A stretch of DNA of 64,000 nt, from the NCBI GenBank assembly GCA_918797485.1, contig CAKKNE010000003.1:4030001-4094000 (forward strand). Reading direction: 5' to 3'. Positions 6,177 through 13,973 of the stretch are shown here, piece after piece. Made by a program: the position numbers and the translations under genes. The notes beneath the pieces were generated by a model. The model did no database searches, was not told where the DNA came from, and saw nothing but the letters and a program-made list of their open reading frames with translations. Each line of letters starts with the position of its first letter. The stretch's first letter is position 1. The stretch is from Pelagomonas calceolata (taxonomy: Eukaryota).

Positions 6177-9100
6177 TTATTTATTTATCCCCCAGAGCTT
6201 GAGCGTCTTGTCGCCCGACCCAGACACGACGCGCCGCCCGTCCGGAAACACGGCAACGCCATAGACCTACGACGAAGACAGATCATCACAAAAGTACAGC
6301 GGACGCCGCAACGCACGGCACGCGAGTGCCCTCGCAGCGTCGCCAGGCATTTGCCGGTCGCCACGTCCCACACCTTGAGCACTCCTTCCCCGCTATTCCA
6401 AACCCCATCACAAGAAACGACGCGCCGCCCGTCCGGTGAGATGGCAACGCCCCAGACCTACGACGAAGACAGATCATCACAAAAGTACAGTGGACGCCGC
6501 AACGCACTTGATAAGAGTGCCCTTCCAGCGTCGCCAGGCATTCGCCGGTCGCCACGTCCCACACCTTGAGCACTCCTGGCGTATTAAGACTCCCATCACC
6601 AGACACGACGCGCCGCCCGTCCGGAGAGACTGCAACGCACTTGACCTACAACGAAGCCAGATCATCGCAAAGGTACAGTGGACGCCGCAACGCACCTCGC
6701 CCGAGTGCCCTTCCAGCGTCGCCACGCATTTGCCGGTCGCCACGTCCCACACCTTGAGCGTGTTGTCGCCCGACGCAGACACGACGCGCCGCCCGTCCGG
6801 AAACACGGCAACGCCCCTGACCTACGACGAAGCCAGATCATCACGAAAGTACAGCGGACGCCGCAACGCACTCTGTTAGAGTGCCCTTGCAGCGTCGCCA
6901 CGCATTTGCCGGTCGCCACGTCCCATACCTTGAGCGTCTTGTCCCACGACGCAGACACGACGCGCCGCCCGTCCGGAAACACCGCAACGCAAAAGACCTA
7001 CGACGAAGCCAGATCATCACAAAAGTACAGCGGACGCCGCGCAACGCACTCTCTCAGAGTGCCCTTGCAACGTCGCCACGCATTTGCCGGTCGCCACGTC
7101 CCAGACCTTGAGCGTCTTGTCCCACGACGCAGAAACAACGCGCCGCCCGTCCGGAAACACGGCAACGCTCGAGACCTACGACGAACACACATCATCACAA
7201 AAGTACAGCGGACGCCGCAACGCACGGCATCCGAGTGCCCTTTCAGCGTCGCCACGCACTCGCCGGTCGCCACGTCCCAGACCTTGAGCGTCTTGTCGCC
7301 CGACGCAGACACGACGCGCCGCCCGTCCGGAAACACGGCAACGCCCCACACCTACGACGAAGCCAGATCATCACAAAAGTACAGCGGACGCCGCAACGCA
7401 CGTAGTCGGAGTGCCCTTCCAGCGTCCGCACTAAGGCGAGCTTGGACAGGTCGATTTTTTGCTCCTCCTCCTCTTCCTCCTCCTCGACGATCGCGCCGCC
7501 GCCCGGGACGGTCGGGAGCGCCGCCCCGCGCCGGAAATATCGCACAACGTCCTGCGCCGTGGGCCGCTCCATCGGATTACGCTCGAGCATCGCGGCGACG
7601 AGGCCGCCGAACTTGGTCGACGCTGCGCTGGTCTCCTCGACGAGCGCCTTCACGGCCTTGGGGTCGAGCGCAAAGACGCCCGGACAGCGATTCTCCACCA
7701 GCCTCCCCGTGACACCCCCGCCGAGCATGCAGCCCAGGGCCCAGACGTCGTCCTTGCCGTCGTACCCTCTGCCCATCGCCTTCTCCGGGGATCGGTACAT
7801 TTCAGCGCCGACCTTGTTTGCGCCGCTCGCCGGAGAGACCTTGGACTTTGCAACGAGAACTGTGGCCAGCCCGAGGTCGATGATCTTCGCGACGCCGGTC
7901 CCGTCAAAGAGCACGTTGCCGGGATGGAGGTCGCGGTGCTGCATCCGTTGCTCGTGCATGTGCGCCAGGGCCGACGCGACCTCCGTCGTCCATTTCTCAG
8001 TAGCTGCCGCGCGCTCGCCTGTGTCGCTCGTGAGCGGCCCGGACGCCCGTTGGAGGCGCTCTAGCAGCGAGCCGCCCTTCAAAAGTTCCATGACGATGGC
8101 GAAGAATCTGTTCTTCTTGAAGCGGTAGGCCGTGAAGTAGTTGACGATGTTCGGATGATCCAGCATCGAGAGCCGCGCGGCCTCTTCCCGCAGCTTCTCG
8201 ACGCCGACGCCCGCCCTTTTGATGTTGATGAGCTTGACGGCGCATACGCGCCCATCCTCCCTGCCTTTCATTCTATGTGTCGACCCGAAGGAGCCCCACC
8301 CCAATAGCGACGCCTCCTGGTCCGAGTCATCCGAGTCGTACGGGTCGTACACGTACTGGTCCTGGATCGTCGCCTCATTCATTTGCAGCGCATCGATCTT
8401 GGCCTTGAGCTCGTTGATGCCGTCCGTAGTCTCGGCGTGATACGAGGCGGAGCGTTTCGCGTGGTCGTCGAGCTTCTTACTGCCGTCTTGGACGGCGGCC
8501 AGCAGCTTCTCGTCGCGCGCCACGGCCGCTTTTACGGCAGCTAACACCTTGGCGATCTTCGCGCGGTCACCCTGCTTGCAGTCGAGCATATTTTGCATCT
8601 TCTTGTTCAGACCGTCGAGGCTCTCCCTGACCTCGCTCAGCTCGCTCGCAAGCTCCGCCGCCGGTAGGTCCGCGTCGACCGCGACCGACGCGATCGCGAC
8701 GGGGTCGTTCGAGAGCACCGCCACCACCGTTCCCTCGGGCTCGCCGGTCTCGCGGACGCGCGCCTCGACGAGCTGGTTCATGGACGCCTCGATGTTGTAG
8801 GTGCGCTGGATCATGTCCTTGTCCCTCGCGAAGCGGTAGGCGTCGCGGAACACGTCGAGCTGCGACACGATCTCCTTGTCGAGGGAGGTCAGCGATTCGA
8901 CGTGGCCGCGCATCGTCCAGGCGCGCTTCATCCAGCCCTTCTTCCCGAACTTTCGCACCGCCGCGTTGAACTTGACGAGCAAGTCCACCAATCTCCGCAT
9001 CTTCGACTCCACGAGCGCCTTTTCTTCGAGGCGGTCGACGTTCTGCGCCATTAGATACACAATATCCAAGACGTCGCAGACCCGCCGCGCCGCGATGGTG

Positions 9101-9303
9101 ACATCTTTTGCTTTGCTTTTGAACTCCTCCGCCGAGTCGAGGCAGCCCTTAGCCGCCTCGCAGAGCTGGCCGACGAGCGGGAGGTTGCTGCCCAACGAGA
9201 GCAGGGCGCTCACGGCCATGAGGCCGCCTTGGACGACCTTGGACGTGTCCTCATGGCGCTTGAGCATCGTCGCGCGGTCGTCGCCGCGTTCAAAGCCCGA
9301 CAT
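6177..9303 (-). CDS. MLKL-like helical bundle + protein kinase + 7 WD40 repeats. Exons 9303-7402, 7351-7226, 7175-7050, 6997-6872, 6821-6696, 6645-6508, 6457-6317, 6266-6177
   Basis: Kinase motifs [29 protein letters not shown]; removing the GT..AG 50-52 bp introns gives continuous GH..WD repeats ending LKLWGINK*. Confidence 0.88.
6200..7430 (-). repeat. Tandem WD40 exon-intron array 1 (7 units of about 176 bp)
   Basis: Repeated 126-bp exon plus intron gtgcgttgcggcgtcc(g/a)ctgtacttttgtgatgatctggcttcgtcgtag. Confidence 0.95.
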
Positions 9304-12900: not shown

Positions 12901-13973
12901 TTCTCCGCGAGCTGAGAGGCGTCGTGGGGGAGCGCGGCGTTGATCGCGGTCTCGAAGGAGCCCTCGAAGAGCACGGCGTCGCGCAGCCGGGCGAGGGCGC
13001 AAACGTCGGCGATGCCTAGCCGAACGTGCGCGTGGACCGCGCCGCCGGCGTTGTACACGTTCGCCACTTCGCAACCCGCGGGCAAGGCCTCGTCCAAGGC
13101 ATCCTCGAGCACCACGACGTGGCCGCACGCGTCCAGGATCGACTGCCCGCCGTCCGCCGCTAGACACAGCACCTGCTCGCTCTCGAGGTCCAGACCGTCG
13201 ATGGCGCGCCGGAGCGCCTCGTCGGTTCCTTTTTCGAGCACGCGTTCCACGTCGTAGACCTTGTGGGCGTGACCCTTGATGTTTTGGATTTGACGCAAAT
13301 TGAGCTGGAGTTCACCTATGAATCCCGTGTCCGCCACCTCGACGAACAACTTCATATCTCGATAGCCCGAGTCGTGCTTGTGCGCGAAGAACGCGTCCTT
13401 GCAGCGCCGGACGGTGAGCCCGTCGATCGTCCCGCGAAACGCCGAGGCAGCCGTGTTCAGGGCTTCCAGCGAGTCGAAGAGACCCGTGGCGCGCTCGACA
13501 TCAACTACTCGCGCCACGTCGCCCTCGTAGTCGTTCTCCGCCTTGTCCTTGATGCGCTCCACCTTTTTCGTTGGTCCGTGCACGTACTCGCCGCCCGCCT
13601 TCGTCACGAGTCCCTCGAGGGCCGCATGCAGCGCGGCGCCGTGGCGGCTCGCCATGTCGACGAGCGCGCTGGGGGTGTTCGCGGGCAGCGCGCACCGCGG
13701 CTCCGCCTCGTGGAAGTCTTCCACCAGCGCGGCGCACGCGTCGCGCAGTTCGTCGACGGCGGCGCCCTTCCTCGCCGTGTACGACTGCCACCCCGCGACG
13801 TAGCGCTCCTTGATGCGCTCGTTCGCGCCGTCCACGACTTTTCGCACCTTGCCGCGGTCGCAGCTCGCGACGTCGAGGCTGCCGCGCGGCGTGCGCGGGA
13901 CGACGCGGGCGAAGTCCTGCTCCAGAGCCTCTGTGAGCTCCTCGACGTCGATGAAGCTGGCGCCGGCGCCCAT
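9925..13973 (-). CDS. N-myristoylation motif + RelA/SpoT-like nucleotidyltransferase + SF1 (Schlafen/UvrD-like) helicase + 7 WD40 repeats. Exons 13973-11115, 11064-10939, 10888-10763, 10712-10587, 10536-10411, 10360-10235, 10184-10059, 10008-9925
   Basis: MGAGAS start; [57 protein letters not shown]; seven 50-bp GT-AG introns; ends LKLYAC*. Confidence 0.85.
9940..11140 (-). repeat. Tandem WD40 exon-intron array 2 (7 units of 176 bp)
   Basis: Same exon and intron consensus as array 1, with regular 176-bp period. Confidence 0.95.

Follow-up and report, generated by a model that had tools for sequence, protein, structure and literature searches.

We analysed a 64,000-nucleotide (nt) stretch of Pelagomonas calceolata DNA (the window; all gene and feature coordinates are positions within it) and found two adjacent genes on its minus strand, here called genes A and B, that each end in seven WD40 repeats with one exon per repeat. 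The short introns between these exons are nearly identical, at least 12 of the 14 are spliced, variation among the repeats falls on a few positions, and both genes belong to a wider family whose members carry the same type of array behind exchanged front ends. The two genes probably encode immune sensors that evolve rapidly in this single-celled alga. We consider it on balance probable that they are expressed members of a pelagophyte family of intracellular non-self sensors.

WD40 arrays of genes A and B

The two spliced gene models and their arrays are as follows.

Gene A, 9303-6177, minus strand: 8 exons, 924 amino acids (aa) when spliced; helical bundle, coiled linker, Ser/Thr kinase and seven WD40 repeats
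Gene A WD40 array, 6177..7449, minus strand: introns 7401-7352, 7225-7176, 7049-6998, 6871-6822, 6695-6646, 6507-6458 and 6316-6267; array exons of 126, 126, 126, 126, 138 and 141 nt, final exon 6266-6177
Gene B, 13973-9925, minus strand: 8 exons, 1232 aa when spliced; RelA/SpoT-type domain, alpha/beta domain, SF1 helicase, low-complexity linker and seven WD40 repeats
Gene B WD40 array, 9925..11160, minus strand: introns 11114-11065, 10938-10889, 10762-10713, 10586-10537, 10410-10361, 10234-10185 and 10058-10009; six array exons of 126 nt, final exon 10008-9925

Each gene contains seven GT..AG introns, all in phase 0, and seven WD40 repeats, and its long first exon terminates within the first strand of the WD40 domain. 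Thirteen of the 14 introns are 50 nt long, with a mean pairwise identity of 93.7% (range 82-100%); the other (7049-6998, gene A) is 52 nt. Of the 12 internal exons, ten measure 126 nt and the other two, both in gene A, are extended to 138 and 141 nt by in-frame insertions. Tandem Repeats Finder reported a 176-nt period, and a 33-nt intron pattern matched the window 13 times, compared with 0 matches in 100 shuffles. The intron lies inside a variable loop, between codon 42 of one exon and codon 1 of the next; that is, the exon boundary is not the blade boundary. In a self-BLAST of the window, similarity between the two genes was confined to the array plus a brief lead-in (6196-7457 with 9938-11170), indicating that their N-terminal parts are unrelated. 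An earlier note on this DNA had described two tandem genes with exactly seven WD40 repeats each and unrelated N-terminal parts, and both statements were borne out. Its account of 126-base-pair phase-0 exons and near-identical 50-base-pair introns was accurate except for the single 52-nt intron and the two longer exons.

Both genes are expressed and spliced

RNA data came from four raw poly(A) runs of a single sample, 6-12% of each read and mapped to positions 6100-14100; reads from paralogues may inflate the counts. At least 12 of the 14 introns were spliced, as 50- or 52-nt CT..AC joints among the 15 joints listed. All seven introns of gene A were spliced, with 763-1557 first-mate-plus reads per joint, and so were at least five of the seven introns of gene B, with 86-125 reads per joint among the same 15. 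Genes A and B are therefore both expressed, and the 50-nt segments are spliced introns, as the earlier note had supposed. The remaining three listed joints were non-canonical, with foreign letters between their two sides, as expected from paralogue reads. Loose RNA ends matched exons of contigs L012/L014 and L007 (two of the three motifs tested), indicating that the organism also expresses other variants of the family.

The earlier note had also proposed exon skipping as a source of diversity. No clean exon skip was found among the best 15 of 78 joints, which is a weak test, because a skip between near-identical exons may go unseen and paralogues contribute reads. If the joints were ranked by reads, a single skip in gene A amounts to less than about a tenth of the normal joints.

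Two further features of the RNA data concern gene A. Sharp RNA ends accompanied by a step in depth occurred at 7992 on the minus strand (88 ends beside a depth of 418 in run X21 and 39 beside 182 in run X22; not listed for runs X23 and X24), which suggests an internal start inside the gene A kinase; an in-frame ATG at 7959 would yield an isoform consisting of the kinase C-lobe and the WD40 domain. Antisense, plus-strand reads covered 8000-9850, from the 5' half of gene A to a thioredoxin fragment, at up to 89-fold (X21), exceeding the sense depth. A bidirectional internal promoter is a possible source of this cover.

Variation is concentrated at five codons of the repeat

We assessed variability over 52 distinct 126-nt exons, excluding exons with insertions, stops or frameshifts. 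Codons 2, 18, 41 and 42 held 10-17 residues each (2.8-3.8 bits) and codon 20 held eight, while most others were nearly fixed; in the framework, the non-synonymous (pN) and synonymous (pS) differences were 0.049 and 0.157, respectively. The combination at codons 2, 18, 20 and 42 was distinct in 51 of the 52 exons. Pairs 42/2 and 18/20, which flank an invariant V and D, are spaced like codons 7/9 and 25/27 of Podospora HET-D/E; the register was set by this spacing rather than by aligning the repeats to HET-E. Those Podospora codons, which are selected, lie on the top face of the propeller, according to an excerpt of PMC1805685, and the earlier note had likewise predicted hypervariable surface codons of the HET type. 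Non-synonymous steps per site in the five variable codons numbered 5.1, compared with 1.6 for framework synonymous sites and 1.0 for the intron; that is, 3-5 times the background.

Nucleotide distances between exons were 0.115 within gene A, 0.143 within gene B and 0.129 between the two genes, and the repeats did not cluster by gene or by position. Repeats of contig L002 were no closer to gene B at the same position than at other positions (0.139 vs 0.139). Linkage decayed with distance along the repeats (permutation p 0.001), and exons B5 and A3 were alike over their last 72 nt apart from one mismatch and differed over their first 54 nt. Introns of the family diverged by only 7-8%, and no identical tracts of at least 60 nt were shared between units. 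Taken as a pattern in the sequences, these values point to concerted evolution of the repeats within and between genes, in line with the proposal that the binding surface is rebuilt by recombination.

Eleven junctions without an intron, in five loci, were farther from the consensus (0.18 vs 0.045; one value is inflated by an insertion). The first 15 nt of the intron read VRCGV, and an intron-less repeat in L010 starts with VRCVAV; owing to this resemblance, the intron may derive from a partly duplicated repeat start.

The arrays belong to a family with exchanged front ends

A metagenome scan with the intron pattern returned 26 stretches in 24 loci on marine contigs, and 109 database proteins, many of them fragments, carry a read-through of the intron; the earlier note had expected such a family. 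In the window and the 24 loci together, the introns of 48-52 nt number 102, and the length is divisible by 3 in 66 of the 68 internal exons shorter than 260 nt. Counting identical introns once per place, all 110 intron placements precede a WD40 exon start, 106 of them in frame on both sides. Two propellers are joined by a linker in five loci. The named homologues are from Aureococcus anophagefferens and P. calceolata; the Aureococcus proteins include RelA/SpoT-helicase-WD40 relatives of gene B, whose models show clipped repeats. The intron pattern had 0 matches in viral contigs. We found no account of this WD40 family in the literature searched, where supplementary domain catalogues (e.g., that of PMC8195603) may list some of the proteins; the terms WD40, virus and immun- had 0 occurrences in the available portion of the main text of the Pelagomonas genome paper (PMC9481584).

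At least 100 residues precede the array in 51 of 240 proteins, two of these front ends being repeat-derived; 11 proteins in all of the front-end set were unclassified by motif. The gene A bundle was paired with a NEK-like kinase in three proteins and with a TKL-type kinase in three. Of two further helical domains, one had either a kinase or a helicase as its partner (49% identity over 176 aa) and the other either a helicase or TPRs (42% over 137 aa). The RelA/SpoT front end stood by itself in seven proteins; elsewhere it was combined with the helicase or, in P0183 and L024, preceded by a kinase. Three proteins combined a HEPN-like domain (Pfam E 0.011-0.044 in two of the three), with what we take to be the HEPN motif, and a U2AF65-like RRM (E 2e-18). 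In L003:3-1442, P0143, P0223, P0240 and P0195, the same WD40 array follows a front-end domain of about 480 aa that belongs to no Pfam family. Pieces of housekeeping-type domains (U2AF65-like RRM, ARM repeats, WW, RanBP2 zinc fingers) occurred in P0175, P0185, P0161, P0133 and P0207 and are possibly captured baits. The prediction that such arrays are fused to different effector domains thus holds for RelA/SpoT alone, two kinase types, helicase, HEPN-like plus RRM, and TPR front ends, and several of these are of a death or conflict type (a likely MLKL-like bundle and a Tas1-like fold), as the prediction of death or signalling effectors would have it.

No NACHT or NB-ARC domain was matched by Pfam in genes A and B or in the precomputed Pfam lists of the 109 relatives, many of which are fragments; a weak nSTAND_NTPase5 match covered the helicase P-loop only. 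What we take to be the NACHT-type P-loop pattern occurred in 0 of 106 signature-bearing proteins. A HET domain was matched neither in genes A and B nor in the front ends searched, and Pfam matched no ROC-COR domain with LRR exons in genes A and B.

Front ends of genes A and B

The domains N-terminal of the two arrays are as follows.

Gene A N-terminal helical bundle, 8818..9276, minus strand: aa about 10-162; all-helical AlphaFold model, predicted local distance difference test (pLDDT) 78.9
Gene A kinase domain, 7540..8310, minus strand: aa 332-588; Pfam Pkinase E 7e-42
Gene B RelA/SpoT-type pyrophosphokinase fold, 13251..13685, minus strand: aa 97-241; motifs K/R, D..R, GY and E.Q
Gene B alpha/beta domain, 12684..13190, minus strand: aa 262-430; no Pfam match
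Gene B SF1 (UvrD/Schlafen-type) helicase, 11571..12680, minus strand: aa 432-801; Pfam AAA_30, SLFN-g3_helicase, AAA_19, AAA_12 and UvrD_C_2

The gene A bundle, judged by its predicted structure, is likely MLKL/CC-R-like. At VIA Z values of 9-10, which is the background range for helical bundles, it resembled the MLKL N-terminal domain (Z 9.9, root-mean-square deviation 2.8, 116 residues aligned), AtMLKL3 (Z 9.3) and the CC-R domain of NRG1.1 (Z 9.2). In the ESM atlas, it was placed near MLKL_N clusters (0.94; a cluster with 36% MLKL_N). The assignment is not decisive, and it is further weakened by CAMP factor and designed bundles, which outscored MLKL (VIA Z 10-12.7), and by the lack of any Pfam match for the bundle. 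Foldseek with the bundle gave no match at E 0.001 or below, BLASTP against P0035 (Pfam MLKL_N) and against a TIR protein of the window was not significant, and the profile of alignment A1 returned only kinases among its best 60 PDB sequences. The gene A kinase retains its main catalytic residues; its catalytic loop reads HRDLHPGN, and several relatives have HRDLKPDN.

Gene B begins with MGAGAS, which we take to be a myristoylation-type start. Its first domain is predicted to have a RelA/SpoT synthetase fold with the catalytic motifs, and its activity and product are proposed by analogy. Foldseek matched it to Tas1 (E 5e-5), with CapRel and small alarmone synthetases also matched, and VIA gave Z 11-12 to small alarmone synthetases, CapRel and Tas1. 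Tas1 was the sole match among PDB sequences (phmmer E 3e-6), and Pfam RelA_SpoT reached E 0.16 only. The synthetase motif residues, presumably catalytic, are conserved in 17-19 of 20 aligned rows. Tas1 is described, in the part of PMC10083569 available, as killing through conversion of ATP/ADP to (p)ppApp. Searches limited to close relatives yielded no confirmed relative of the RelA/SpoT domain in viral or prokaryotic genome contigs. The alpha/beta domain weakly resembled TRADD-N in its predicted structure (VIA Z 5.6, root-mean-square deviation 3.8, 99 residues aligned, rank 40), which we treat as a lead only. PADLOC matches were to a generic kinase or helicase and were not used as evidence.

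One locus with different gene content

Two neighbouring genes served to compare the locus between contigs.

HSP70 gene, 4219..6171, plus strand: Pfam HSP70; convergent with gene A, with 5 nt between the two stops; serves as synteny anchor
Thioredoxin 3' half, 9686..9859, plus strand: between genes A and B; NCBIfam thioredoxin E 1e-9

In L002, a B-type gene with the last exon of gene A directly adjoins HSP70, and synteny reaches window position 1314. In L005, the HSP70 3' end and the flank at 14484-14567 surround a RelA/SpoT-only gene, and L011 likewise abuts HSP70. The block running from the end of gene B to the front of gene A would be gained or lost through recombination between the arrays. 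The synonymous distance between L002 and the window was 0.137 in the helicase part (230 codons), compared with 0.62 in HSP70 and 0.35-0.45 in three other flanking open reading frames (ORFs). The low helicase distance fits recent exchange or introgression; a chimeric contig fits too. Introgression or exchange is reported for Podospora NLRs in an excerpt of PMC13449251, and short-read assemblies of such repeat arrays are called unreliable in one of PMC12222747.

All that L005 has of HSP70, at L005:104-260, is a pair of short pieces joined together; either the gene was deleted in this copy of the locus or the contig was mis-assembled. The active-site half of thioredoxin had 0 motif matches in the window. 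Every read over the thioredoxin fragment differs from the DNA at 9766; therefore, these reads may come from another copy or allele. Rfam had no match in 6000-14600.

A proposed receptor model and its alternatives

We propose the following mechanism. The seven-repeat WD40 domain, predicted to form a single propeller, would bind foreign or altered proteins through its few variable residues, and binding would then release the front domain. The kinase of gene A or the SF1 helicase of gene B would take the central switch position that NACHT or NB-ARC holds in NLRs and relay the signal. The predicted output of gene A is membrane damage by the MLKL-like bundle and that of gene B is nucleotide pyrophosphorylation by the RelA/SpoT-type domain; either way the cell would stop growing or die, most plausibly as a defence against viruses. 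Gene conversion and unequal crossover would keep the 176-nt exon-plus-intron unit near-identical and reshuffle the binding residues. As the intron interrupts the variable loop, crossing over within it would bring together codons 41-42 and codon 2 from different repeats. Whole front ends may be exchanged through recombination within or next to the array, and diversity would arise mainly at the DNA level rather than through exon skipping.

We tentatively extend this model to the family, as a possibility held with less confidence than the sensor role itself. Pelagophytes may possess combinatorial immune receptors with three NLR-like slots and no STAND ATPase: an effector (MLKL-like bundles, a Tas1-like alarmone synthetase or a HEPN-like RNase), a switch or captured bait (SF1 helicase, either of two kinases, U2AF65-like RRM or TPR), and a seven-blade WD40 sensor in which the homogenised 50-nt intron splits the variable loop as a recombination hinge. 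They might act by abortive infection against giant viruses, some members draining ATP into (p)ppApp.

Several observations weigh against the immune-sensor interpretation, in addition to those given above for the gene A bundle. Within the five variable codons, synonymous change (9.3 steps per site) exceeded non-synonymous change (5.1; binomial p 0.99), so formal positive selection is unsupported and local hypermutation is compatible with the data. Long-lived balanced variants, codon changes made in several steps or a local hotspot could each account for the high synonymous change. The activation step lacks a direct precedent because no NACHT or NB-ARC was found. Complete single arrays had seven repeats in only five of eight cases, six in two and one in one. 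All RNA evidence is from one sample, and L002, L005 and the repeat counts of contigs may be chimeric or collapsed. The per-codon comparison of dN and dS suggested by the earlier note therefore gave a divided result, with a non-synonymous excess over the framework and intron background and none over synonymous change within the variable codons. Its immune-receptor interpretation retains the gene structure, splicing, family, variability and module mixing; exon skipping, in the weak test available, and a within-codon excess of non-synonymous change were not seen.

A less probable explanation, though one that deserves weight, is that the family works in general signalling or as a scaffold and plays no part in defence; homogenisation would then be passive, and the variable codons would reflect relaxed constraint or a local mutation hotspot. 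The high synonymous change at the same codons fits this explanation, as does the expression of gene A in culture at hundreds of reads per joint, and kinase-WD40 proteins are common. However, the variation is restricted to the codons selected in fungal receptors while adjacent codons and introns are nearly fixed, and the front ends are of conflict type and recombined.

It is rather unlikely that, instead of sensing pathogens, the genes let algal cells or strains tell self from non-self (in mating or incompatibility, like het-d/het-e) or guard host proteins. The closest mechanistic model, HNWD, does serve allorecognition, as an excerpt of PMC12222747 states. Differing gene content at one locus and the low synonymous distance of the L002 helicase would fit balanced or introgressed alleles. 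Against this, we know of no cell fusion in this unicellular group, and the HEPN-like and helicase modules would point to nucleic-acid invaders.

We consider it quite improbable that the exon-per-repeat layout exists for alternative splicing or somatic shuffling, by which one gene would give many propellers. All introns are in phase 0 with near-identical splice signals, and brown-algal ROCO genes are reported with alternative splicing (PMC11378527). However, no clean skip appeared among the best 15 joints, the three non-canonical ones look paralogous, and the weakest listed joint had 86 reads compared with 763-1557 for gene A joints; in addition, skipping would leave fewer than seven blades, and there are no spare exons.

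Finally, that the 50-nt segment is an introner-type mobile intron or that the arrays are an assembly artefact is highly improbable: the Pelagomonas intron peak near 210 nt does equal the Aureococcus introner element length (excerpt of PMC9481584) and repeat arrays are prone to mis-assembly, but in the window and the 24 loci the family introns are 48-52 nt long, sit without exception before WD40 exon starts and nearly always in frame, and have no similarity to the dispersed repeats of the window, while the units share no long identical tract and RNA reads cross the window's own joints.

Little has been described of virus resistance in eukaryotic phytoplankton. In some Aureococcus strains, cells are lost following exposure to a virus, yet no virus is produced, according to the available part of PMC10720644. 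The WD40 family would offer concrete candidate genes for algal virus resistance that can be compared between strains, and the fold resembling that of bacterial toxin alarmone synthetases is a candidate eukaryotic effector.

Other features of the window

A 792-aa ORF at 53112-55490 (plus strand), with a TIR domain (E 9e-14), a helical region, C-terminal SAM domains and an MG start, is a candidate for another immune signalling gene. A direct duplication of 315 nt (28162-28476 and 28945-29259, 99.7% identity) lies just upstream of a MYND-RINGv-TPR ORF (29258-30316), and a 1061-aa ORF at 47082-50267 (plus strand) contains DUF285 repeats in duplicated blocks. Dispersed repeats of 50-130 nt at 16618-16723, 24098-24224, 38358-38499 and 25257-25309, also present in L004 and L021, resemble introner-type elements and are unrelated to the 50-nt WD40 intron.

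Comparison with known systems

For the front end of gene A, the nearest systems are MLKL, plant MLKL and CC-R (RPW8-type) proteins, with which it shares, as a moderate match, the order of a predicted helical bundle, a long helix and a kinase; it differs in that the kinase retains its main catalytic residues and a variable WD40 domain follows. An excerpt of 10.1101/2022.03.16.484565 names MLKL-like domains as the commonest fungal NLR effectors and mentions RelA_SpoT and kinase as reported earlier in fungal NLRs and not confirmed as clusters. Gene B shares its predicted fold and conserved synthetase motifs with toxic small alarmone synthetases (Tas1/Apk1, CapRel, FaRel), whereas it is eukaryotic, is fused to a helicase and a WD40 array, and has no antitoxin seen nearby. 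The DED-TRADD-N-WD40 proteins of Branchiostoma, as far as the excerpted PMC8195603 describes them, likewise join a NOD-less effector or adaptor to variable WD40 propellers diversified by recombination; they are animal proteins with death-fold domains, and the TRADD-N resemblance of gene B is weak.

The ROCO-LRR and NB-ARC-TPR genes of brown algae (Ectocarpus, Saccharina) are also stramenopile candidate immune receptors with one exon per repeat (PMC3341825, PMC11378527). However, the present family has WD40 repeats instead of LRR or TPR, phase-0 exons (ROCO LRR exons are in phase 2), and neither ROC-COR nor NB-ARC. Its introns are near-identical at 50-52 nt with no spare or inverted exons, no skipping was seen in the weak test available, and its host is unicellular.

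The closest likeness is to the HNWD/NWD receptors of Podospora anserina (HET-D, HET-E, HET-R). In both, as described in excerpts of PMC1805685, PMC13449251 and PMC12222747, near-identical WD40 repeats of 126 nt evolve in concert within and between genes, the variable codons fall at the d-a loop and the b-c turn, and alternative effectors occupy the N-terminus. The algal genes differ in having neither NACHT nor HET, in giving each repeat its own exon, in a homogenised intron that cuts the variable loop, in arrays of mostly seven repeats or two linked propellers, and in a kinase or SF1 helicase in the middle. By analogy, then, the algal family appears to resemble HNWD receptors in its action yet falls outside the NLRs, as it has no NOD. 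It would thus combine HET-E-type diversification with the brown-algal exon-per-repeat layout in a unicellular alga, without the domain that defines NLRs.

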